The position numbers were made by a program, and so were the translations under genes. The notes below the pieces were generated by a model, which had not been told where the DNA came from, did no database searches, and saw only the letters and a list, made by a program, of their open reading frames with translations. A DNA stretch of 60,385 bases from Myxococcales bacterium (GTDB lineage: Bacteria > Myxococcota_A > Polyangia > Polyangiales > JAFGIB01), in contig JAPPOT010000210.1 of the NCBI GenBank assembly GCA_028817855.1, forward strand, positions 1 through 60,385. The letters run 5' to 3'. Positions 2,061 to 60,385 of the stretch are shown piece after piece (within the stretch, counting starts at the first letter, position 1; each line of letters opens with the position of its first letter).

Positions 2061-2783
2061 TCAGGTCGGGCTCAGGTGAGCCATGAGCGGCAGGTGGTCG
2101 GATAGCTCCGACCAGGGGCTGCCGTCGAGTCGCCCACCGCTCTCGGCCTGCAGGTGCTTGACGTAGATCCGGTCCAGGCTGAAGACCGGTCGCCGTGCGT
2201 GCCACGTACGGAGCCGCTCGGGCGCATGACCGGCGAAGGGGTCGTCGAAGCCGAGCTCGTGCAGCACGAGGCCCTCGAGGTCGCGTCGCCAGTCGTTGAA
2301 GTCGCCGGCCAGCAGCACCGGCTCACCCGACTGGCTGACGCGCTCCACCAGCTCGCCGATCTGCCGCATCTGGGTGCGGCGCTGCCACTGGTTGAGGCCC
2401 AGGTGCACGTTGAAGACGTGAAGCGATTGCTCGCCGAGGGTGAGGCGCACGTAGAGCGCGCCGCGGCGTTCGACCCGGTTGGTGGAGATGTCGTGGTTGT
2501 CGAAGTGCTCGACCGAGAGGCGCGTGAAGGTGGTGTTGCCGTGGTGGCCGACGCTGCGGAACTTGTTGGCCCCGTAGTAGCTGCTCAGGCCCATCTCCTG
2601 AGCCAGACCCCCGCTCTGGGAGTCTCCGGTGCGGGCGCAGTGGAAGACCTCCTGGCAGAGGATCAGATCCGCCTCGTGCTGGGCCAGGGCGGCCCCGATC
2701 CGGCGCATCTCCACGGCGGTCCGCCCGTTGGCGCCCTTGCCCTTGCGGATGTTGTAGGTGATGACGCGGAAGGGAAGGGGCAC
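2061..2783 (-). CDS. endonuclease/exonuclease/phosphatase (EEP) family protein
   Basis: EEP motifs FRVITYNIRKG, LILCQEV, LLAGDFND and C-terminal LSDHLPL. The 5' third of the listed 340-aa ORF overlaps the divergent PLD gene. Start placed at in-frame GTG 2783 (alternative GTG 2843). Confidence 0.75.
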   Translation of the reverse strand: MPLPFRVITYNIRKGKGANGRTAVEMRRIGAALAQHEADLILCQEVFHCARTGDSQSGGLAQEMGLSSYYGANKFRSVGHHGNTTFTRLSVEHFDNHDISTNRVERRGALYVRLTLGEQSLHVFNVHLGLNQWQRRTQMRQIGELVERVSQSGEPVLLAGDFNDWRRDLEGLVLHELGFDDPFAGHAPERLRTWHARRPVFSLDRIYVKHLQAESGGRLDGSPWSELSDHLPLMAHLSPT

Positions 2784-2892
2784 GGGGTTACTGCGGGGGG
2801 TGAGCAGAGGTGGGCAAGCAGGAGCCAGAGCGAATATAACCACATTCCAGGCGGGGGCGAGCCACCCCCGCGCATGCCACGTGCCCGACTCG

Positions 2893-4005
2893 ATGATCCC
2901 AGGCAATCGCGTCTCCTTGCTGCACGACGGCGGCGAGACCCTGCCGGCGATGCTGGACGCGATCGCCCAGGCGCGGCGCGAGATCCTGCTCGAGATGTAC
3001 TGGTTCGGCTCCGATCGCACGGGCCGTCGCTTCGCCGAGGCGCTCGAGGAAAAGGCGAGGCAGGGGGTCCGGGTGCTGGTCACGTACGACGCGGCCGGGA
3101 GCTTCGAGGCCGACCGCGGGATGTTCGAGCAGATGTGCGAGTCCGGCTGCGGCGTCTACGAGTTCAACCCGGTCCACTTCTGGCGCCCCCGCTTCCGCTT
3201 CAGCTTCGCCGGCCTCAACCAGCGCAACCACCGCAAAATGCTCATCGTGGATGGCGTCACCGGCTTCACCGGCGGCCTCAACCTGGCCGACCCCTGGGCG
3301 CCGGAGGAAGCGGGGGGCGACGGCTTTCGCGACGACATGATCCGCGTGGACGGTCCCGCCGTGGAGAGCATGCGCTCGATCTTCCTGGGCTGCTATCGCG
3401 GCGACGGGCTCGATGCGGCCCTGGCGGATGACCTGCCGGCGACAGGGGAGGGCGGCAACAGCCGCGTGCGGGTGCTGGCCAACGACCTGCGGCAGCATCG
3501 CAAGACGATCGAGCGGGCCTACCTCGCGCGCATCCGCATGGCGCGCGAGCGGCTGCTGATCACCAACAGCTACTTCATCCCGAGCTTCCGGGTGCGCCGA
3601 CATCTGGCGCGTGCGGTCGAGCGCGGCGTGCGCGTGAAGGTGCTGCTGCCCGTCGAGAGCGACGTGCCTGCCGTGACCTACGCCACGCGCCGGCTCTACA
3701 GCTGGATGATGCGCCGCGGTATCGAGCTCTACGAGTGGCCGCAGAGCATCCTCCACTCCAAGACTGCGGTGGTCGATGGGCGCTGGTGCACGGTGGGTAC
3801 GCACAACATCGACTACCGCTCCTGGGCTTACAACCTGGAGATCAACGTCGCGGTCGAGGACATCGAGGTGGCGGGGCGGCTCGAGGCCCGCATGGAGGAG
3901 GACATCGCCGGCTCGGTGCGGGTGGACCCGCACAACTGGCGCTTTCGTTCACTCGGGCAGCGGGTGCTCGAGCAGTTCTTCTATCGCTTTCGGCGATTGA
4001 TGTGA
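2893..4005 (+). CDS. clsB: phospholipase D family protein, cardiolipin synthase ClsB-like
   Basis: Two HKD motifs (HRKMLIVDG and HSKTAVVDG). About 370 aa with no N-terminal TM helices, as in ClsB. Start moved to ATG 2893 (MIPGNRVSLLHDG). Neighbour is an EEP gene, as in E. coli ybhP-clsB. Confidence 0.75.
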   Translation: MIPGNRVSLLHDGGETLPAMLDAIAQARREILLEMYWFGSDRTGRRFAEALEEKARQGVRVLVTYDAAGSFEADRGMFEQMCESGCGVYEFNPVHFWRPRFRFSFAGLNQRNHRKMLIVDGVTGFTGGLNLADPWAPEEAGGDGFRDDMIRVDGPAVESMRSIFLGCYRGDGLDAALADDLPATGEGGNSRVRVLANDLRQHRKTIERAYLARIRMARERLLITNSYFIPSFRVRRHLARAVERGVRVKVLLPVESDVPAVTYATRRLYSWMMRRGIELYEWPQSILHSKTAVVDGRWCTVGTHNIDYRSWAYNLEINVAVEDIEVAGRLEARMEEDIAGSVRVDPHNWRFRSLGQRVLEQFFYRFRRLM

Positions 4006-7700: not shown

Positions 7701-8804
7701 TCAGGCCGCGCGTCGCCGACGCAGCATTGCTAGGGTGAGCAGCAGACCCGCGGCGGCGGCCGTGCCGCTGCCCGAGGGGACGCCCGGCACACCGGCGCAG
7801 GCGGTTACCCGTGCGATCGGACCGATCGCGTCGGCCGCGGCATGGGCCGCGCACAGCTCGCGTGCCGCGCCGTCGCCGTCGCACAGCGCGTCGATCGCCC
7901 GCGCCACGTAGGTCGCCTCCTCGCGCTGCTCGATCACGTCGTTTTCGTCGCTGCGCACGGAGGTGCAGTCGGCGTGCACCTGGATGTAGTCGTCGGCGCC
8001 GCGCGCGAGCACTCCCCGCAGCCGGCCCTCGCGGTCGAATACGCCCGAGCCGGAGCTGCCGTGGAAGGTGTCCGAGTCGGCACGGAAGAAGTCCAGCGTG
8101 GACCCGCGGGCGTCCACGACCTCGGCGCCGGAGTCGATCTTCAGCGGCAGCCCGGCGCTGAAGCCGATCACCGTCAGCGGCTCGCCGCGGGCGAGTGGCT
8201 CGTCGCCCACGTGAATCCGGGCAGGGCGGCGAGCGCCCGAGACCGGTCGGTCCAACCGGATCCAGGCGTGGTCCACCTCGCGCCCGCTGGGGTCGCGCCG
8301 CTGCTCAGCCTCCACGGTGCTGCAGCCGTAGACGTTGTCGCGCATCATCGGCGCCAGCTCGCCCTCCTCGCGGTAGAGGAAGCCGAACACCAGCTGCAGC
8401 TCCTCGCACGGCACCACGTCGAGGCAGTGGGCGGAGGTCAGCACGAGGTCGTCTTCGACGAGGGTGCCCGAGCAGTGGGCCAAGCTCGGTTGCTCGGTAA
8501 AGCGCTCGCCCTCGCACAGGTCGTAGAGCTCGCCGAAGGTCTCGGTCGGGTAGCGAACCTCGCCGTCCGGCATCGCCTCCAGCAGCCTGCGGTCGATCAG
8601 CGCCACGCCCGAGGAGGCGGCCAGCTCGCGCGTCGCGGCGTCCGGGTGGGCAAAGTAGTCCTGGCGGTCATCGCCCCCGTAGACGACCGCCTCGACGCGC
8701 AGGGCCACCTCCGGGCCCGCCGCCGCCGTCTCGGCCGCGCAGCCGCCAGCGCCCATGCCCAGGGCGCACATCACCAGCAGCGCCCCCCAGGCGCTCCCAC
8801 GCAT
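7701..8804 (-). CDS. secreted trypsin-like (V8/Trypsin_2-type) serine protease with MYXO-CTERM-like C-terminal sorting tail
   Basis: Catalytic His context LVLTSAHC and Ser context DTFHGSSGSGVF. Signal peptide MRGSAWGALLVMCALGMGAGGC. C-terminus ACAGVPGVPSGSGTAAAAGLLLTLAMLRRRRAA (Cys, G/S-rich spacer, hydrophobic helix, Arg cluster). Start ATG 8804 (alternative 8822). Confidence 0.8.
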   Translation of the reverse strand: MRGSAWGALLVMCALGMGAGGCAAETAAAGPEVALRVEAVVYGGDDRQDYFAHPDAATRELAASSGVALIDRRLLEAMPDGEVRYPTETFGELYDLCEGERFTEQPSLAHCSGTLVEDDLVLTSAHCLDVVPCEELQLVFGFLYREEGELAPMMRDNVYGCSTVEAEQRRDPSGREVDHAWIRLDRPVSGARRPARIHVGDEPLARGEPLTVIGFSAGLPLKIDSGAEVVDARGSTLDFFRADSDTFHGSSGSGVFDREGRLRGVLARGADDYIQVHADCTSVRSDENDVIEQREEATYVARAIDALCDGDGAARELCAAHAAADAIGPIARVTACAGVPGVPSGSGTAAAAGLLLTLAMLRRRRAA

Positions 8805-14615: not shown

Positions 14616-15260
14616 ATGCATCGACGCGCCGTACACCGTAGGTCCGCGACCTACCCACCCGTGCAGCTCACCCTGGTGGTGCTCGCAGCGTCTGCGAGCG
14701 CGTGCCAGGCGGCATCCGCCGAGTACTTCGCCGATACCGACCAACCGCGCGCGGATGATGCGTCGGGCGCGGCCCTGCACGACACCACCATCGAGTTGCC
14801 GGCCTCGCTGCGCGGCGTGCCCACGGGCGAGCGCGCGCCCACCGGTGCGCCGGTAGTGGTCGCCTGCGGTACCTGTCACAACGGCGAGCCCGGTGCGCTG
14901 CCCGCGCAGGCCAGCGAGGTCGCAGGGCCACACACCGGCCTGGTCGTGCAGCACGGCGGCAACACCTGCGGCTCCTGCCACGACCCGAACCGGCGCGACC
15001 GACTCAGGCTCGCCGACGGCCAGCAGCTCGAGCTGACCGAGGCCATGCAGCTCTGCAGCCAGTGTCACGGGACCCAGCGTCGCGACTACGACCACGGTGC
15101 CCACGGCGGCATGGCGGGCCACTGGGACCTCGCCCGCGGGCCGCGCACACGCAACCACTGCATCCATTGCCACGACCCGCATGTGCCGGCCTATCCGCGC
15201 GTGCTGCCCGCGGCGCCGCCGCGCGATCGCTTCTTCGGAGCCGGAGCGGGCCATGAGTAG
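14616..15260 (+). CDS. tetraheme c-type cytochrome (first gene of nap-associated module)
   Basis: Four CXXCH motifs (CGTCH, CGSCH, CSQCH, CIHCH). Signal peptide ending ASASAC. Start at ATG 14616. Confidence 0.8.
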   Translation: MHRRAVHRRSATYPPVQLTLVVLAASASACQAASAEYFADTDQPRADDASGAALHDTTIELPASLRGVPTGERAPTGAPVVVACGTCHNGEPGALPAQASEVAGPHTGLVVQHGGNTCGSCHDPNRRDRLRLADGQQLELTEAMQLCSQCHGTQRRDYDHGAHGGMAGHWDLARGPRTRNHCIHCHDPHVPAYPRVLPAAPPRDRFFGAGAGHE

Positions 15261-15425
15261 AACCCATCTCACAGCCTCCCGTGGGTGGATTCTGGAGCGC
15301 GACGGTGCCGAGCGGCGCATCGGCGAACGGAGGCAATGCGCGGGCATTGTTGAGCGTGAGGTGAGGCGGTGCGCGGTAGTGTCCCGCCCGGAAGGCGCCG
15401 CGAGGAGGCTTTGCGATGGGTTCTA
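15258..15425. mobile_element. MITE-like element, family A copy 1 (TA-flanked, IS630/mariner-type features)
   Basis: The 164-bp body (15260-15423) has TIRs GAACCCATCTCACAGCCTCC and GAACCCATCGCAAAGCCTCC (18 of 20 match). TA lies on both flanks. A copy about 85 percent identical lies inverted at 29167-29332. It sits between the cytochrome and FeS genes. Confidence 0.7.
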
Positions 15426-16321
15426 GGGTCACGCGCCGCCGCGCCCTGCGCGTCCTCGGGGCCAGCCTGGGGGGCAGCGCCTTCGCCTACGCCGTCGCGC
15501 CGGTGGCCGCTTTCGTGCAGGCCACGAACAAGGAGGAGTTCCTCCAGCAACACTATCGCGAGCTCACCGAGGCGGGGCTGGCCGACGTGCTGCGGCGGCT
15601 CGAGGCCGAGACCGCCCGCGACTACGGCGCCGACGTCAGCATCCGCGACCCGCGCCCGCTGCCCGACGTCCAGTTCGGCTATGCGCTCAACCTGAGCGTC
15701 TGCATCGGCTGCCGCAAGTGCGCCGAGGCCTGCCACCACGAGAACAACCACGACCGCCGCACGAACAACTCCTACATCCGCGTGCTCGAGATGACCCAGG
15801 GCACGATGGACATGGAGCAGGGGAGGGCCGACTACGACCACGCAGTGCCAGCGCCCGGCAAGTACTACATGCCGGTCCAGTGCCAGCAGTGCGAGAACCC
15901 GCCCTGCGTCGATGTCTGCCCCGTGCAGGCCACCTGGAAGGAGGACGATGGCGTCGTCGTGGTCGACTACAACTGGTGCATCGGCTGCCGCTACTGCGAG
16001 GCGGCCTGCCCCTACCACGCGCGCCGCTTCAACTGGCACAAGCCCGAGATCCCGGCCGACGAGATCAACCCCGACCAGGCGTACCTGAGCAATCGCGTCC
16101 GGCCCCAGGGCGTCGTCGAGAAGTGCCACTTCTGCCTGCACCGCACGCGCGAGGGGCGGCTGCCCGCCTGCCTCGAGGCTTGCCCCACGGGCGCGCGCGT
16201 CTTCGGCAACCTGCTCGATCCAGAGTCCGAGATCCGCTGGGTGCTCGCGAACAAGCGCGTCTTCGTTCTCAAGGAAGAGCTCGGGACCAATCCGCGCTTC
16301 TTCTACTTCTTCGACACCTGA
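15416..16321 (+). CDS. Tat-exported 4Fe-4S cluster protein (NrfC/PsrB/HybA-like)
   Basis: Twin-arginine signal MGSRVTRRRALRVLGASLG. Four Cys clusters (CIGCRKCAEAC, CQQCENPPCVDVCP, CIGCRYCEAACP, CHFC...CLEACP). SD GAGGAGG 7 nt upstream. Confidence 0.85.
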   Translation: MGSRVTRRRALRVLGASLGGSAFAYAVAPVAAFVQATNKEEFLQQHYRELTEAGLADVLRRLEAETARDYGADVSIRDPRPLPDVQFGYALNLSVCIGCRKCAEACHHENNHDRRTNNSYIRVLEMTQGTMDMEQGRADYDHAVPAPGKYYMPVQCQQCENPPCVDVCPVQATWKEDDGVVVVDYNWCIGCRYCEAACPYHARRFNWHKPEIPADEINPDQAYLSNRVRPQGVVEKCHFCLHRTREGRLPACLEACPTGARVFGNLLDPESEIRWVLANKRVFVLKEELGTNPRFFYFFDT

Positions 16322-16329
16322 TCCTCGCC

Positions 16330-17598
16330 ATGGCGACACCCTCCCACCGCATCAGCACGATCGACCACAGGGTCAACTACGCCAAGTTCCTGTGGCGGGC
16401 GCTGTCCGCGTCCACCGACGGCAGCTGGGGCTTCTACGCCGTGATGACTGCGCTGTCGGTGGTAGCGCTGGTCGGCGCCAATGCCTGGGCGCAGCAGCTG
16501 GTCCACGGGTTGGCGACCACCAACATGAGCGACCACGTCTCGTGGGGACTCTACATCGCCAACTTCACTTTCCTGGTCGGCCTCGCCGCGGGCGGCGTGA
16601 TGATGGTCATTCCGGCCTACGTCTACCGCGACCAGAAGATGCACGACGTGACGATCATCGGCGAGCTGCTGGCGATCGCCGCGATCGCGATGGCGCTGCT
16701 CTTCGTGGTCGTCGACATGGGCCGGCCGGACCGGCTCTGGCACATGATCCCGGGGCTCGGCCGCTTCAACTGGCCGATCTCGATGCTCACCTGGGACGTC
16801 ATCGTGCTCAACGGCTACCTGCTGCTGAACCTGCACGTAGTCGGCTATATCGTCTACCAGCGCTATCTGATGCGCCGGCCGAATCCGCGCTGGTACGTGC
16901 CCTTCGTGTTGCTGTCGATCGCCTGGGCGATCTCGATCCACACCGTGACGGCCTTCCTGTACTCGGGCCTGGGTGGGCGTCCCTTCTGGAACTCGGCGCT
17001 GCTCGCTCCGCGCTTCCTGGCCAGCGCCTTCATCGCCGGCCCCGCGGCGATCATCATCACCCTGCAGTTGGTGCAGCGCCTCACGAGCTACATGGTGCCG
17101 GACGGCCCCATCCGCACGCTGCTCCAGGTCGTGCGTGTCACCACCATCATCAACCTCTTCATGCTGCTGAGCGAGCTCTTCACCGAGTTCTACTCGGGCG
17201 GAGCCCACACCGCCTCGGCGCGCTACCTCTTCGTCGGTCTGCACGGGCACGCCGAGCTGGTGCCGTGGATCTGGTCGGCGGTGGCCCTGAACGGATTCGC
17301 CATCCTGCTGCTGGTCCAGCACAACGTGCAGTCGCGGCCCCTGTTGATGAACGTCGGGCTGGTGATGACGTTCGTGGGCGTGTGGATCGAGAAGGGCATG
17401 GGCCTGATCATCCCCGGCTTCATTCCCAGCACCCTGCATGAGGTCGTGACCTACATGCCGAGCGCGAACGAGTGGAAGGTCACGCTCGGCATCTGGGCCT
17501 TCGGCGGGATGCTCTACATCGTCGCGATCAAGGTGGCGCTGCAGGCCTTCGCCGGCGAGCTGCATCGCTCCATCCCGCCACCCCGGAGGAAGAGCTGA
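16330..17598 (+). CDS. NrfD/PsrC-family integral membrane quinol-interacting subunit
   Basis: 422 aa with multiple TM helices. WGLYIANFTFLVGLAAGG is typical of NrfD-like proteins. Start at ATG 16330 inside the longer listed ORF. Confidence 0.85.
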   Translation: MATPSHRISTIDHRVNYAKFLWRALSASTDGSWGFYAVMTALSVVALVGANAWAQQLVHGLATTNMSDHVSWGLYIANFTFLVGLAAGGVMMVIPAYVYRDQKMHDVTIIGELLAIAAIAMALLFVVVDMGRPDRLWHMIPGLGRFNWPISMLTWDVIVLNGYLLLNLHVVGYIVYQRYLMRRPNPRWYVPFVLLSIAWAISIHTVTAFLYSGLGGRPFWNSALLAPRFLASAFIAGPAAIIITLQLVQRLTSYMVPDGPIRTLLQVVRVTTIINLFMLLSELFTEFYSGGAHTASARYLFVGLHGHAELVPWIWSAVALNGFAILLLVQHNVQSRPLLMNVGLVMTFVGVWIEKGMGLIIPGFIPSTLHEVVTYMPSANEWKVTLGIWAFGGMLYIVAIKVALQAFAGELHRSIPPPRRKS

Positions 17599-17900
17599 TG
17601 CCGATCAGTGGCCTGATGGTGACCCTGCCTGCCGACGGTGCGGTGCGCGAGCGCGTCCTTGCGCACGTCGAAGCCGACCCGTGCCTGACGAGGGGCGTCC
17701 TGTCCGGGTTGCGCGTCGCGCTGGTCTCCGAGACGGGCTCGCCCGCCGAGGACGAGGCCGTCGTGGAGGGGCTGCAGCGCTTCGACGGCGTCTTCGTCGA
17801 CGTCATCTTCTACGACTTCTCCGACGTCGAGTCGGTCGATTCGCTGCCGCGCCGCCGTCGCCGCAGGCCCGAGCAGCACCACGCGGGTGAGGGAGGCTGA
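17598..17900 (+). CDS. napD: NapD-like chaperone
   Basis: 100 aa. [10 protein letters not shown]...[36 protein letters not shown] follows the NapD pattern (ISSLVV...VVVEA...IE.....GVL.V.LVYH). ATGA overlap with the preceding stop. Sits directly upstream of napA. Confidence 0.7.
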
Positions 17901-17901
17901 C

Positions 17902-20283
17902 ATGGAGCGTCGGGAGTTCATCAAGATGTCGGCCATGGCGGCCGCCGCGGCCGCGGTCGAGGCGGGGCCCGCGCGCTCGCAGCTCAAGGTCCTGCAGAAC
18001 GCGGGCGTGAAGTGGAACAAGGCGCCGTGTCGCTTCTGTGGCACCGGCTGCCACGTGCAGGTGGGCGTCGACGGCGGGCGCGTGGTCGCAGTCGCCGGCG
18101 ACCGCGACGCGCCCGTCAACAAGGGCCTGCTCTGCGTCAAGGGCTACCACGTGGGGCTGGCGCTCTACGGCAAGGACCGGCTCACGCGCCCGCTGCTCAA
18201 GCAGGACGGCAAGCAGGTGCCGATCTCCTGGGATCGGGCGCTCGACATCGTGGCGGAGCGGATCGCCGCCGCGCCCGATCGCTTCGGCATCTACGGCAGC
18301 GGGCAGTGGACCATCCCCGAGGGCTACGCCAATCAGAAGCTGATCAAGGGCGGCCTCGGCAACAACCACATCGATCCCAACGCGCGGCTGTGCATGGCCT
18401 CGGCGGTGACCGGCTTCCTGAGCACCTACGGCGTCGACGAGCCGGCCAGCTGCTACGACGACCTGGACGCGGCCGACGTGATCATCGCCTGGGGCAACAA
18501 CCCGGCCGAAATGCATCCCATCCTGTTCTCGCGCTTCATCGACCGCCGCGCGCGTGGCGAGCGCGTCGTGTTGATCGACATCGGGACGCGCCGTACGCGT
18601 ACCACCTCCTTCGCCCAGCACTACCTGGAGTTCAAGCCCCACAGCGACCTGGCCATCGCCAACGGCATCGCCCACATCCTGTTGCGGGAGGGGAAGTACG
18701 ATCGAGAGTTCGTCGAGAAGCACTGCGGCTTCCGCACCGAGGGTGAGAAGCCTTCGCTCTTCGGTGAGGCGATGGACTTCGAGAGCTACGAGCGCCAGCT
18801 GGCCGAATACACGCCCGAGCGGGTGCAGGAGCTCTCGGGCGTGCCGGTGGAGCAGCTGCGCATGCTGGCCGGCCTCTTCGCCGACCGAAAGAGGCGCATC
18901 ACCAGCCTCTGGTGCATGGGCGCCAATCAGCATACGCGCGGCACCGCCATGAATCGCCTGATCCACGGCGTGCACCTACTCAGCGGGCACTTCGGCAAAC
19001 CCGGCGACGGTCCCCAGAGCCTGACCGGCCAGCCCTCCGCCTGCGGCACCGCGCGCGAGGTCGGCACCCTCGCCCATGCCCTTCCCGGGGGCCGCATCGT
19101 CAAGAACGCGGAGCACCGCAAGCAGTGCGAGGCGCTGTGGAACGTGCCCGAGGGGCGCATCGCGGCCAAGCCGGGCTTCCACACGGTCAAGATGTGGGAG
19201 GCCTTCAGCACCGAGGGCGGCGGCATCGACACCCTGTGGGTCCAGGTCACCAACCCCGCGCAGAGCCTTCCGAACGTGCGCAAGCTCTTCCAGCCCAGCC
19301 GCAAGCTGGCCGACAAGTTCCTGATCGTCAGCGACGTCTATCCGACCGAGACCACTCGCCATGCCGACCTGGTGCTGCCGTCGGCCATGTGGGTCGAGAA
19401 GAACGGCATCTTCGGAAACTCCGAGCGCCGCACCCAACAGTGGTTCAAGATGGTGGAGCCGCCCGGCGAGGCGCGCGACGACTGCTGGCAGGTGATCGCG
19501 GTCGCGAAGCGCCTCCACGACCTCGGCGTGCCGGGCATGCTCGATCGGGACGGCCGCTTCCTCTTCCACATGGAGGACGCGGCCGGCAAGGAGGTCCCGG
19601 TCTGGGACTGGAGGCGCTACTACGACATCAACGTCGACGAGCGCCTCTTCAGCGAGTACCGCGGCTTCAGCCGCCTCAAGCACAAGGACCTGGCGCCCTA
19701 CGACGAGTACGTCAAGTCGCGCGGGCTGCGCTGGCCGGTGGTGAAGGGCGATGACGGCATCTGGCACGAGACCCGCTACCGCTTCGTCGAGGGTGAGGAC
19801 CCGTACGTGGAGAAGGGAGAGGGCTTCTCCTTCTACCACTCGACGAGCAAGAACGGCCGCGCCCAGATCTGGTACCACCCCCACGCGACGCCCCCCGAGG
19901 TGCCCGATGCCGAGTACCCCTTCTGGCTGTGTACCGGGCGCGTGCTCGAGCACTGGCACACGGGCAGCATGACGATGCGCGTGGCCGCGTTGCGCCGGGC
20001 CATGCCGAACGCCTACGTCGAGATGCACCGGGAGGACGCCCGCGCGCTGGGCCTGCGCAACGGTGAGATGGTCCGCCTCGAGACGCGCCGTGGCGCGCTC
20101 GACCTGCCCCTGTGGCTCGACGGCCGGGGTGCGCCGCCGCGCGGCTCCGTCTTCGTGCCATTCTTCGACGAGCAGCTGCTGATCAACGAGCTCACCCTCG
20201 ACGCTCACGACCCGGTGTCGAAGCAGCCTGACTACAAGAAGTGCGCCGCGCGCGTGCGCAAGCCGGGAGCGAAGGCCACGTGA
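17902..20283 (+). CDS. napA: periplasmic nitrate reductase catalytic subunit NapA
   Basis: Tat signal [35 protein letters not shown] 4Fe-4S motif. 793-aa molybdopterin oxidoreductase. SD GGGAGG upstream. Confidence 0.95.
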
Positions 20284-21059
20284 ACCTCCCCGGTGTGAAG
20301 ACCGGCCCGCGCGCCACCCTGATCGGAGTCGCGCTCAGCCTCGGCGCCGCGGCCGTCGTCCTGGTCTACTGGACCCGAGGCGTCCCGGAGCCCGCCGGCT
20401 ACCACGCCGCAGCGCCGCGCGACGGGGCCGGCTTCGAGGTGCAGCCCGCGCCCACCTATGGACAGCTGCGCGACCGCGCCTATGGGGCCGACCTCGATCG
20501 GCATGCGACTGCCTTCGCCGCGATGGGCCACCAGCGTCCCGAGCTCACCGCGGAGGTCGTGCGCAGCGCCGAGGCGCTCGCCGCCGCGCGCACGGCCCGC
20601 GCCGAGCACCGCGCGTTCGCCGGTGCGCCCCCGGTGATCCCCCACGCCATCGATCAGCGCGACTACCCCAACTGCATGAGCTGCCACGCGGACGGCCTCG
20701 TGGTGGGTGAGCGTGTGGCGCCCGCCATGAGTCACGCGCCCTACGCGAGCTGCGTCCAGTGTCACGCGCCAGCGGGCGCGCCGCCTCCGGTCGCAGCAAC
20801 CGCGCCCGCCGTCGCGGGCAACACGTTCGAGGGACTGGCCGAGCCGTCGGGGGAGCGCGCCGCGCCGGGCGCGCCGCCGACGGTGCCCCACAGCACGCTC
20901 ATGCGTGAGCGCTGCAACAGCTGTCACGGCGTGCTCGGTCAGGGCATCGTCACCACCCATCCGTGGCGCACGAGCTGTCTGCAATGTCACGGCCCGTCGG
21001 CCGCGCTCGATCAGCGGGACTCCTTCTCGCAGCTCTCGCCGCCGCCGGTGGCGCCATGA
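20280..21059 (+). CDS. napB: membrane-anchored tetraheme cytochrome built from two NapB-like modules
   Basis: GTG start overlaps the napA stop (GTGA). N-terminal TM helix [18 protein letters not shown]. Module 1 is [20 protein letters not shown]...[12 protein letters not shown] and module 2 is [18 protein letters not shown]...[12 protein letters not shown]. Confidence 0.75.
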
Positions 21060-28734: not shown

Positions 28735-28891
28735 GCCGCGACGCTAGCACGCCGGAAGATCGCGTGGAGCGCGGACGGCGTGTCCCCAGTGCTCCCATGA
28801 GCCGGTCGAATTGGGCCAGGCGCGCCACATCAATGTCCTCGTGCGCGTCCGCGTCCTTTACAGGCCCGCCCTCCGTTCGCATGTTGCTGCG

Positions 28892-29167
28892 GTGCAGGAG
28901 GTCGAGGTCGGCTCGGAGGTGATCGCGGGCATCGCGTACGACGATGCGTCGCGCGCGTGCGAGGTGCGCTTTGCCAACGGTCGCGTCTACCGCTACGACG
29001 GTGTGCCGCGCAGCGTCTTCGACTGGTGGATGCGCGCGCCCTCGAAGGGCGCCTTCTTCAACCGCAAGGTGCGCGACGTGTACCCCTATCGCGAGCTGGA
29101 GGGAGACCTCCCACCCGAGCCCGACCTGGAGGCGCTGCTCGAGGCCTCCCTGCGGTCCGACGACTAG
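28892..29167 (+). CDS. KTSC domain protein
   Basis: IAGIAYDDASRACEVRFANGRVYRYDGVPRSVFDWWMRAPSKGAFFNRKVRDVYPY matches the KTSC pattern. Start placed at GTG 28892 (uncertain). Confidence 0.65.
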   Translation: MQEVEVGSEVIAGIAYDDASRACEVRFANGRVYRYDGVPRSVFDWWMRAPSKGAFFNRKVRDVYPYRELEGDLPPEPDLEALLEASLRSDD

Positions 29168-29334
29168 AACCCATCTCAAAGAACGTCCTCGCGGCGCCTT
29201 CCGGGCGGGACGCCACCGCCCACCGCGTCGCCTCACGCTCAACAATCCCGGCGCATTGCCTCGGTTCGCCGACGCGCCGCTCGACACCGCCGCGCTCCAG
29301 AGTGCATCGACGGGAGGTTCTGGGACGGGCTCTG
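29165..29334. mobile_element. MITE-like element, family A copy 2 (inverted relative to copy 1)
   Basis: The body (29167-29332) aligns at roughly 85 percent identity to the reverse complement of 15260-15423. The left end GAACCCATCTCAAAG is preceded by TA, which forms the KTSC stop TAG. The right TIR is degenerate and followed by TG. Confidence 0.65.
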
Positions 29335-57965: not shown

Positions 57966-60385
57966 GTGTCTTTGGATTCGCGCTTCGAGCGCCCCGGGTC
58001 GATTCCCGCGGGCACAATTCAACTGTTCTTAATTGCTGCGTTGATCGCCGGCTGCGGGGACGACGCCAACGAGACGGGCGAGGCTGATCAGCCGACCACC
58101 GCGCAGCGTGATGGGGGCTCGGACGAGCAGCCCGCCGACGAGCCCGACGCGGGCGATCAGGACGGCGGTGGCGGTCCCGAAGACCCGCCCAGCGGCGACG
58201 ACCCCGAGCCGGCGGAGGATGCGGATGAGGACCCCGCGCCCGGTGACGACCCGATCTCGGAGGAGGACGAGGACGCCGGCGTCGGCGAGGAGGTGGTCCC
58301 CGGCGACTGCAACGACGGGGCGCTCAACGGCCTCGAGACGGGCCTCGACTGCGGCGGCCCCACCTGCGACCCCTGCGCCGACGACGAGGTCTGCGCCCTC
58401 GATCGCGACTGCGAGTCGGGGGTGTGCGCCGAGGACGGCCTCTGCGGCGAGGACACGTGCCCGGACGACGAGGGCAAGCGCGCGCCCGGCGTGTGCGGCT
58501 GCGGCGTGAGCGACGACGACAGCGATGGCGACGGCCGGCCCGACTGTCTGGACGGCTGCCCCGAGGATGCCGCCAAGTCCGCGCCTGGCCGCTGTGGATG
58601 CGGCGAGGTCGAGGACCCGACCGACAGCGACGGCGACAGCTTCCTCGACTGCGAGGAGAGCTGCGACCGGGATGGCGACAAGACCGAGCCTGGCGTGTGC
58701 GGCTGCGGCGTGAGCGACGGTGACACCGACAGCGATGGCACGGCGGACTGCATGGATGGCTGCCCGGACGACGGCGGCAAGGTCGAGCCGCTGAGCTGCG
58801 GCTGCGGCGTGGCCGAGACCGACGGCGACAGCGACGGCACCCCGGACTGCGACGATGGGTGTCCGGAAGATGCCGCCAAGACCGACGCGGGCGTCTGCGG
58901 CTGCGGCGAGAGCGATGCGGACAGCGACGCCGATGGCACCGCCGACTGCGATGACGAGTGCCCGAGTGACGTCGACAAGACCGTGCCCGGCCAGTGCGGA
59001 TGCGGCGTCACGGAGGATGCCGGGGACCGCGATGGCGACGGCACGATCGACTGCTTCGATGGCTGCCCCGATGACCCGGAGCAGACCCGGCCCGGACCTT
59101 GCGGCTGCGGCGAGCCCACCGATGCAGGGGATCAGGACGGCGACGGCGTGATCGATTGCGCCGACGAGTGCGACGAGGATCCCAACAAGTCGGAGCCGGG
59201 CGTGTGCGGCTGCGGTGTGGTGGAGGACGTGGCCAACGACGATGGCGACGCCCTGGTCAACTGCCTGGATGGCTGCCCGGCGGACGCTGCCAAGACCGAG
59301 GCCGGCGTGTGCGGCTGCGGTGTGGTGGAGGACGTGGCCAACGACGACGGCGACGGCGCCGTCAACTGCCTGGACGGCTGCCCGGCGGACCCGGTCAAGA
59401 CCGCGCCGGGCGAGTGCGGCTGCGGGATCGTGGAGGACGCCGGCGATCCGGATGGCGACGGCGTGCTCAATTGCTTCGACGAGTGCCCGGACGACCCCGA
59501 CAAGGTCGCGCCGGGCCAGTGCGGCTGCGGCGTGGTGGACGTGCTCGACGACAGCGACGGTGACGGGACCCTCGACTGCAACGACGGCTGCCCGGACGAT
59601 GGCGAGAAGACCGAGCCTGGCGCTTGCGGCTGCGGCGTGACCGAGGATGCCGCCGATGACGACGGCGACGGCACGCTCAACTGCTTCGACGCGTGTGTGG
59701 ATGACCCGGACAAGACCGAGCCGGGTGTGTGTGGCTGCGGCGAGCCCGAGCTCTCGGACGACAGCGACGGCGACGGCACCGCCGACTGCATCGATGGCTG
59801 CGTCGACGACCCGGACAAGACCGAGGCCGGTCTGTGCGGCTGCGGCGTGCCCGAGCAGAGCGACGACAGCGATGGCGACGGCACGATCGACTGCTTCGAC
59901 GGCTGCCCCGACGACGGCGACAAGACCGAGGCGGGCCTGTGTGGCTGCGGCATCGCCGACACAGACACCGACAACGACGGCACCCCGGACTGCACCGACG
60001 GGTGTGACGACGACCCCAACACGACTGCCGTCTGCTTCCCGTACATGCCGTCGAACGTGGACGAGACCAGTCTCGACTTCAGCGCAGCACCGGTCGCCGT
60101 GCTCGACTGTGGCCTGACGACGATCCGCAGCGACGACCCGGCCAGCGTCGAGGGCTGGTGCGGTGACGCGCCCCCGCTGGTGCCCGTCACGCAGCGGGAC
60201 GGTGGCCACGCGCTGGTGGTCGTGCTGCGCGGCTTGACCGTGGCCGACGGCAGCACCCTGCGGGTGGTCGGCGAGCGGCCGGTGATCCTTGCGGGCGACG
60301 GAGACGTGAGCATTGAGGGCGTGGTCGACGCTGCGGCCAGCGGCAGCACGCCGGGCGCCGGAGGCGACGCGCCGGGCACCGATAC
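57966..60385 (+). CDS. large secreted lipoprotein with acidic linker, Cys-rich module and 15 tandem CGCG/DxDxDG repeats (3' partial, runs off window)
   Basis: Not in the supplied ORF track because it has no stop in the window. I hand-translated the frame (positions divisible by 3), which is open from 57819 to the end. Lipobox LFLIAALIAGC at about 58023-58055. Repeat consensus is C-P-x-D-x-x-K-T-E-P-G-x-C-G-C-G-V-x-D-x-D-x-D-G-D-G-T-x-D-C-x-D-G. Start is uncertain (GTG 57966 after GAGGTG; alternatives GTG 57963 or TTG 57972). Confidence 0.8.
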   Translation, partial: MSLDSRFERPGSIPAGTIQLFLIAALIAGCGDDANETGEADQPTTAQRDGGSDEQPADEPDAGDQDGGGGPEDPPSGDDPEPAEDADEDPAPGDDPISEEDEDAGVGEEVVPGDCNDGALNGLETGLDCGGPTCDPCADDEVCALDRDCESGVCAEDGLCGEDTCPDDEGKRAPGVCGCGVSDDDSDGDGRPDCLDGCPEDAAKSAPGRCGCGEVEDPTDSDGDSFLDCEESCDRDGDKTEPGVCGCGVSDGDTDSDGTADCMDGCPDDGGKVEPLSCGCGVAETDGDSDGTPDCDDGCPEDAAKTDAGVCGCGESDADSDADGTADCDDECPSDVDKTVPGQCGCGVTEDAGDRDGDGTIDCFDGCPDDPEQTRPGPCGCGEPTDAGDQDGDGVIDCADECDEDPNKSEPGVCGCGVVEDVANDDGDALVNCLDGCPADAAKTEAGVCGCGVVEDVANDDGDGAVNCLDGCPADPVKTAPGECGCGIVEDAGDPDGDGVLNCFDECPDDPDKVAPGQCGCGVVDVLDDSDGDGTLDCNDGCPDDGEKTEPGACGCGVTEDAADDDGDGTLNCFDACVDDPDKTEPGVCGCGEPELSDDSDGDGTADCIDGCVDDPDKTEAGLCGCGVPEQSDDSDGDGTIDCFDGCPDDGDKTEAGLCGCGIADTDTDNDGTPDCTDGCDDDPNTTAVCFPYMPSNVDETSLDFSAAPVAVLDCGLTTIRSDDPASVEGWCGDAPPLVPVTQRDGGHALVVVLRGLTVADGSTLRVVGERPVILAGDGDVSIEGVVDAAASGSTPGAGGDAPGTD
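58458..60026 (+). repeat. 15 tandem coding repeats of 96-105 bp (thrombospondin-type-3-like Ca-binding motif plus CGCG)
   Basis: Each unit has 4 Cys and a DxDxDGDGxxDC motif. Units 8 and 9 (59193-59297 and 59298-59402) are nearly identical at DNA level. Confidence 0.8.

Follow-up and report, generated by a model that had tools for sequence, protein, structure and literature searches.

A TA-flanked miniature element in the overlap of two nap operon genes of an uncultured Myxococcota lineage very probably supplies a stop codon and a start codon

Dispersed bacterial repeats can become part of the genes beside them. Repeats of the Correia/NEMIS type in Neisseria and of the ERIC/YPAL type in enterobacteria are co-transcribed with their neighbours, are often open-reading, and are found fused to host open reading frames (ORFs) (PMC2229807). 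The REP2 repeats of Neisseria and the IR repeats of Borrelia supply a ribosome-binding site as well as an ATG to the adjacent gene (PMC3184786); the pneumococcal BOX element provides the upstream gene's stop codon in 36 of its 58 overlaps with coding sequences (PMC3049150); and the Chunjie MITE (miniature inverted-repeat transposable element) of Geobacter is reported, in work cited in PMC3184786, to have inserted in an operon without disturbing it. Here we describe a 164-bp element at positions 15260–15423 (plus strand) of a 60,385-bp contig with 70% G+C, analysed whole and hereafter called the window, from a metagenome-assembled genome (MAG) labelled 'Myxococcales bacterium'. We consider it very likely that this element is a MITE that inserted in the overlap joining a multihaem cytochrome c gene to a gene for an iron-sulphur (FeS) protein, and that the insertion explains the junction overall; that it donated the stop codon of the first gene and the start codon of the second we hold with greater confidence still.

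The element is an imperfect palindrome over its whole length, as its terminal inverted repeats (TIRs), its folding and the alignment of its copies all indicate. It stands between two TA dinucleotides, at 15258–15259 and 15424–15425, which form the target-site duplication (TSD), and 15258–15425 reads TA-GAACCCATCTCACAGCCTCC...GGAGGCTTTGCGATGGGTTC-TA. The left TIR, GAACCCATCTCACAGCCTCC, occupies 15260–15279 on the plus strand and the right TIR, GAACCCATCGCAAAGCCTCC on the minus strand, occupies 15404–15423. The arms agree at 18 of 20 positions; with the TA flanks, the repeat finder reports 22 nt at 91% identity with the arms 124 nt apart. A degenerate TIR pattern, allowing up to three mismatches, occurs only at these two sites in the 60 kb, where dinucleotide shuffles lead one to expect 0.00. 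Folding draws all 164 bp into one imperfect hairpin (−106 kcal/mol, z = −7.9). The element holds no transposase-sized ORF, its six-frame peptides all being 55 aa or shorter, and neither a sigma-70-like promoter nor an intrinsic terminator is seen in it. Rfam 15 covariance models at the gathering score gave no match across the whole window.

Three signals of the flanking genes lie inside the element. First, the cytochrome gene (14616–15260, plus strand, 214 aa) ends with a TAG at 15258–15260, composed of the target TA and the G that is the element's first base; the C-terminus of the encoded protein is collinear with its orthologs. Second, a Shine-Dalgarno (SD)-like GAGGAGG sits at 15402–15408, at the inner edge of the right TIR (15404–15408 fall within it) and 7 nt before the new ATG; it is also present in a sister strain (L006). 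Third, the FeS gene (15416–16321, plus strand, 301 aa) has its ATG, at 15416–15418, and its first two and two-thirds codons within the element. Read outward, the right TIR is thus GAGGAGG-N7-ATG-GGTTC. An earlier reading of the DNA, here the first-pass annotation, had claimed TIRs flanked by TA on both sides and had placed the stop-codon G, the SD and the FeS start inside the element, and in each of these points it was right.

The junction is found empty outside the species. In the three closest orthologous operons, those of P0002 (83% protein identity) and of P0006 and P0013 (80%), which are independent of one another, the element is absent and the start of the FeS gene lies within the end of the cytochrome gene, with an overlap of exactly 8 nt, the junctions being ATGACTGA (L008/L009), ATGGCTAA (L011) and ATGGCTGA (L012/L013). 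Removing 15260–15425, that is, the element and one TA, from the window leaves ATGAGTAG, which has the same 8-nt geometry; the reconstructed junction ...GGCCATGAGTAGGGTCACGCGC... reads MSRVTRRRALRV. The first-pass annotation had proposed this very overlap and its product, and had suggested looking for empty sites at the orthologous junction; those of L008, L011 and L012/L013 show the overlap that it predicted.

These observations point to a very probable history of the junction. A TA-duplicating MITE of 164 bp, with TIRs of 20–22 nt and a hairpin over its whole length, would have entered the single TA of the overlap ATGAGTAG. The element's leading G leaves the cytochrome with a TAG stop, and the right TIR supplies an SD and an ATG and restores the FeS frame with one extra residue. 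The arithmetic of the frame is simple: the eight element bases ATGGGTTC and the T of the duplicated TA make nine bases, or three codons, so that the new ATG is in frame for any overlap of the form ATGNNTAR, with a net gain of one codon. In the FeS protein an N-terminal MSR... has become MGSR..., one residue longer.

That the FeS protein starts at the element's ATG is well supported. In its frame the preceding stop is at 15377–15379, and the ATG at 15416 is the only ATG, GTG or TTG before the twin-arginine (RRR) motif of the Tat signal; the next in-frame start, a GTG at residue 28, would lose that motif. In all 120 closest homologs the Tat motif lies 4–7 residues from the N-terminus, so the old and the new start both fit and downstream starts are excluded. 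With no other start preserving the Tat signal, the ATG at 15416, in the right TIR, has to be the start codon. The public annotation likewise begins the protein at MGSRV, and the same start with its in-frame Tat signal had been called in the first pass.

The filled site is equally well documented. Contigs from at least seven samples carry the element at this junction, and so does the sister MAG (L006), whose identity to the window is 98.37% over 20.9 kb; the element's recurrence in independent assemblies, in many samples and in a second MAG means that it is no assembly artefact. MGSRV opens each of the three proteins in the 90% cluster, and hence no empty allele has been recorded in the species. 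The insertion is older than the divergence of at least two strains, 98.4% identical to each other. A comparison of these strains finds the element changed at 8 of 168 positions (0.048), and pS of the flanking genes is 0.042–0.057; its divergence equals the synonymous rate, and the element as a whole drifts neutrally.

The genes behind the element tell a different story from the decay that an insertion of this kind might bring. Such a hairpin, large and placed within an operon, might be polar, and one may imagine that it broke expression and that the genes from FeS to napA are now decaying. Against this, the FeS gene shows 12 synonymous changes and 1 non-synonymous change between the two strains (pN/pS 0.025), with values of 0.038 for the DsrP-like gene and 0.095 for napA. 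These three genes have thus kept pN/pS at 0.025–0.095 since the strains diverged; over all genes of 16330–20283 the range is 0.038–0.18, and all reading frames are intact. Decay is accordingly very improbable. Strong purifying selection since the strain split implies that the genes downstream of the element have gone on working, and so being expressed, ever since the insertion. The first-pass annotation had spoken of an essential nap operon junction. The nap part stands, given the NapA match and the NapB-like neighbour; 'essential' is not justified for a respiratory operon of the periplasmic nitrate reductase, where purifying selection is what can be shown. The locus thus offers a clean natural experiment, with the same junction empty in three lineages and filled in two strains, and with the downstream genes still under selection.

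The element is not alone. BLAST of the element against the window returned a second full-length copy, older, on the minus strand at 29165–29334 (85–89% identical), whose far duplicate has decayed by one transition to give flanks of TA/TG. Two more full-length copies, numbered 3 and 4, lie at 1586–1749 (78%) and 2333–2499 (87%) of L014, a further contig of the sister MAG (GCA_041940225.1), the same locus being present in GCA_041941105.1 (L015). They were reached through a search of the element's minus-frame peptide against 1.84 billion representative proteins, in which P0125 was the one real match. This protein (L014 1740–2573) is a 277-aa ORF without Pfam domains that starts at the outward ATG of copy 3 (MGSS...) and crosses copy 4. 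Thus, the further TA-flanked copies envisaged in the first pass do exist: four distinct loci within one species-level lineage, three with perfect TA/TA flanks and copy 2 with TA/TG. Each of the four folds into a hairpin along its whole length (−87 to −106 kcal/mol, z between −2.4 and −8.2), and the consensus structure has 67 pairs, 6 of which show pair-keeping changes on both sides.

Wider searches added little to the family. The plus-frame peptide of the element matched only the sister-MAG ORF, and a profile of the minus-frame peptides matched nothing. A scan of genome contigs with the internal 23-mer CCCGCCCGGAAGGCGCCGCGAGG gave one chance match, in a Planctomycetota MAG and without TIRs, and showed none of this lineage. 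TIR patterns had no match in IMG/VR viral contigs (the first pattern was too narrow), blastn against a plasmid collection found no match to the element, and no copies lie in 9 kb of sequence past the window's right end. A JGI metagenome scan with a 20-mer common to all copies gave three chance matches and one half-element remnant: in contig Ga0224501_10003521 (L016), about 80 nt within 8571–8667 match the element profile in its left-central part (E = 2e-10) but lack both TIR and TA ends, and this stretch may be a decayed half-element or belong to a distant related family in another environmental genome. Three Logan contigs, each from a different run, that break inside the element (L004 and L005, which begin at element position 42, and L007, at 58–59) were considered as signs of near-identical extra copies and set aside as ambiguous, as strain SNPs could also split assemblies.

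A reader impressed by the strong hairpin, and by a family to which no known transposase belongs, might prefer to see a structured intercistronic regulator particular to this lineage, or a palindrome of the REP/BIME type, rather than mobile DNA. We find this hardly credible. The four loci are unrelated, yet each is bounded by TA and the same TIRs; the orthologs show a clean empty site, equal to the filled one once the element and one TA are taken away; the element's sequence changes at a neutral rate and belongs to no Rfam family; and 164 bp with a TSD are unlike REPs of about 35 nt. The REP/BIME class, mobilised by RAYT, was rejected on the same grounds, its units being some 20–40 nt with neither TIR nor TSD, as opposed to 164 bp with TIRs and a TA duplication. 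In size, TIRs, TSD, dispersed copies, empty and filled sites and hairpin, the element conforms to what defines bacterial MITEs.

Having argued for a MITE insertion, we would note three points that weigh against it. Neither a transposase nor a longer element with matching ends was found in the ~205 kb examined, where no further TIR-like site exists at up to five mismatches; mobility is consequently deduced from anatomy and distribution. Just four loci are known, mutually 78–89% identical, with no sign of recent activity. Finally, no empty site was found in a close relative, and since the nearest one is at ~83% protein identity the time of insertion is poorly bounded.

How the FeS gene is translated behind such a hairpin is a separate question. 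In the free mRNA, the predicted unpaired probability is 0.00 for the new AUG and 0.14 for the new SD, both being predicted to pair with the left TIR. Meanwhile the ancestral FeS start, the ATG at 15253, persists, and the GGAG before it (15243–15246) was untouched by the insertion. The element and one TA add 166 nt, or 1 modulo 3, and the second TA, with G 15426, therefore falls in the frame of the old ATG, which is open across the element. Six-frame translation accordingly shows a 57-codon ORF at 15253–15426 (plus strand) closed by the TAG at 15424–15426. This bridge ORF overlaps the new ATG by 11 nt, its stop starting 8 nt past the first base of that ATG. It is open in both strains, and the sister MAG's gene calls include it (L006 9821–9994, P0123).

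With every base of the new start predicted to be paired, a two-step coupling relay is the simplest model. Ribosomes leaving the cytochrome would restart, as in the ancestral operon, at the old ATG, which with its SD is intact and now opens the 57-codon ORF crossing the element; in translating this ORF they would melt the hairpin that buries the new SD and ATG; and on terminating over the new ATG they would reinitiate there, so that FeS expression would still be translationally coupled. The old ATG and its 57-codon ORF are probably part of the mechanism. As to whether the relay would be the main route of FeS initiation, we judge the matter evenly balanced. Several considerations count against it: an open frame is unremarkable across an element of 67% GC, and two of the six frames are open; equilibrium folding takes no account of co-transcriptional translation; and every step of the relay is one that we infer.

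The chief alternative accepts the same insertion and lets the FeS gene be translated by independent initiation on the SD and ATG of the TIR, with the 57-codon ORF as a by-product of no consequence. This was the version of the first-pass annotation, which held that the insertion was tolerated because the TIR carries an outward-facing SD and an in-frame ATG. The two signals are indeed in the TIR, and at both ends of the family; that they would work by themselves is the part that fits less well, given that folding predicts both to be hidden in the hairpin. GAGGAGG at 7 nt before an ATG is a strong canonical site, kept in the sister strain, the outward SD-ATG is a feature of the family, and co-transcriptional loading of ribosomes could outpace hairpin formation. 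On the other hand, the hairpin of −106 kcal/mol pairs both signals with the left TIR, the left arm is transcribed first, so that the hairpin can close once the right arm emerges, and the ancestral junction relied on the overlap, whose old start site is intact. We regard independent initiation as possible but not favoured.

A further proposal is that a double-strand-specific RNase cuts the hairpin, uncoupling the cytochrome message from that of FeS to napA, the FeS gene then being translated from a processed 5′ end. All copies have a long, nearly perfect hairpin, such cleavage is reported for Correia/NEMIS in Neisseria, and MITE hairpins are reported to affect the mRNA of adjacent genes (PMC2229807). 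Yet a cut in the stem alone would not release the SD and ATG from the complementary arm, and no feature of the sequence demands it; we consider this route improbable.

Compared with these possibilities, the insertion itself, with its donated stop and start, is the firmer part of our proposal, and it raises the question of where such elements land. Both termini of the family begin with G, so that in either orientation TA plus G remakes a TAG wherever a stop codon gave the TA. Copies 1 and 4 read GGAGG-N7-ATG-GGTTC-TA outward at both ends; copies 2 and 3 do so more weakly. At four of four loci, one end of the element adjoins a Pfam-supported gene, and TA+G forms that gene's stop. In the window these genes are that of the cytochrome c (stop 15258–15260) and a KTSC-domain gene at 28811–29167 (stop 29165–29167); in L014 they are an Alpha-E gene at 608–1588 (stop 1586–1588) and an esterase gene at 2497–3444 (stop 2497–2499), the original stop of the latter having been TAA. 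The insertion flanks are GTAG, CTAG, CTAG and ATAA, with no simple sequence target. The window has 657 TA dinucleotides, of which ~60 lie outside ORF spans, and 22 of its 44 genes end in TAG or TAA; placement at stops in four of four cases has P ~1e-6 over all TA sites and ~0.005 over non-coding plus stop-codon TA (n = 4). This hints at a preference for stop codons which, at n = 4, is a lead and not a result.

It is tempting to think of a family adapted to colonise stop codons and overlapping operon junctions without polarity, an idea that we rate as doubtful. If it were true, a split TAA or TAG would be remade as TAG, the SD-N7-ATG placed 8 nt from the tip would refit the ATGNNTAR frame, the frame open from end to end would let ribosomes be relayed through the hairpin, and the four-of-four placement would reflect targeting or strong filtering, not chance. 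As separate observations on the window, its 44 GC3-supported genes use TGA 22 times, TAG 20 times and TAA twice, such a TAG share being high for a genome of 70% G+C, and TA dinucleotides occur at about half of the base-composition expectation (657 versus 1372).

The genes around the junction form a nap cluster (14616–21059) with an unusual electron-input module. The cytochrome (gene call; Pfam Paired_CXXCH_1 / Cytochrome_C7) is followed by the Tat-signal 4Fe-4S protein, which is of DsrO/NrfC type by its domain matches and homologs, its DsrO-like assignment scoring 194.8 bits, slightly below the cut-off of 200. On the same strand come a DsrP/NrfD-type membrane subunit (16330–17598; 418 bits, cut-off 350), a called 100-aa ORF (17598–17900) and napA (17902–20283; 905 bits for NapA NF010055, whose cut-off is 904), and then a gene for a NapB-like dihaem/multihaem cytochrome. 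No NapC/NapGH-type gene was noted in 14616–21059 or its L006 equivalent.

There is also a practical side. The bridge ORF (P0123) and the 277-aa ORF (P0125) are both called as genes in public MAGs, and both are likely to be annotation artefacts caused by the MITE, which can now be flagged as such.

Elsewhere in the window, 58458–59981 holds a tandem array of ~14.7 copies of a 105-nt unit (~69% matches) within a large plus-strand ORF, where it encodes 35-aa Cys/Asp-rich repeats (CPDDPDKTEPGLCGCGV..DSDGDGT.DC.DG). Scaffold_627 of ERZ23496742 (L020) is 99.97% identical to the window from 60385 to 54525 and then diverges at L020 5860/5861; beyond the point corresponding to ~54525 it carries unrelated genes (prenyltransferase, purD, purU and a DEAD helicase) in place of the window's sequence from 54524 down, and no copy of the element lies at the breakpoint. 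The break is either a strain rearrangement or a chimeric join.

As to parentage, the TA duplication points to an IS630-family element as the putative parent, and it is this way that we lean, slightly. TA duplication is not exclusive to IS630, and a CTAG-type target is the preference of IS630 proper. Here CTAG is found at two of four targets, while it accounts for 26 of the 657 TA sites in the window. It is quite possible that the parent lies outside IS630/Tc1-mariner, in another TA-duplicating group (e.g. the IS427 group of the IS5 family), or is unknown, as for Correia and ERIC. The ~205 kb examined yield no link between these TIRs and a transposase, only two of four targets are CTAG, and it is common for TA-flanked bacterial MITEs to have no identified parent (PMC2229807, Table 1). 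What speaks for IS630 instead is that a 2-bp TA duplication with TIRs of at least 20 nt is most typical of IS630-derived MITEs, e.g. RUP (PMC2229807).

RUP, from pneumococcus, resembles the element in its size of ~100–170 bp, its TIRs, its TA target and flanks, and its non-coding, dispersed nature (PMC2229807). Its TIRs, however, match a known IS630-family element (IS630-Spn1; PMC2229807), whereas no parent was found here, and RUP is AT-rich, belongs to a Gram-positive host and has stops in all six frames, whereas the present element has two open frames. Correia/NEMIS and ERIC/YPAL are alike as TA-flanked, TIR-bearing repeats that form RNA hairpins over their whole length (PMC2229807). They differ in sequence and host, and they are described as contributing promoters and IHF sites and as affecting RNase processing and the stability of mRNA, not as replacing an overlapping stop and start. 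As summarised in PMC3184786, Chunjie of Geobacter uraniireducens has hairpins of about −98 to −130 kcal/mol, with some copies overlapping genes, in which it is similar; being A+T-rich and 178–235 bp long, with 9-bp direct repeats, it belongs to a different transposition family. The REP2 class of Neisseria was set aside as a home for the element, for REP2 lacks TIRs and carries a promoter, whereas the element is bounded by TIRs and a TSD and lacks any promoter-like site; donation of a ribosome-binding site and ATG is all that they have in common. BOX, like the element (four of four copies), supplies stop codons, but it is built of boxA/B/C modules, does not duplicate TA and is unrelated in sequence. 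A literature search on MITEs together with translational coupling, or with myxobacteria, returned nothing relevant.

Thus, the family is a new one, of MITEs in an uncultured Myxococcota lineage, while the kind of event is already known. What the present locus adds is that supply of a ribosome-binding site and ATG, supply of a stop codon and insertion in an operon are joined at one overlapping junction, with evidence from empty sites and from selection, and that it shows, base by base, how a selfish hairpin fits a coupled junction by having its own ends remake the stop, the ribosome-binding site and the start.

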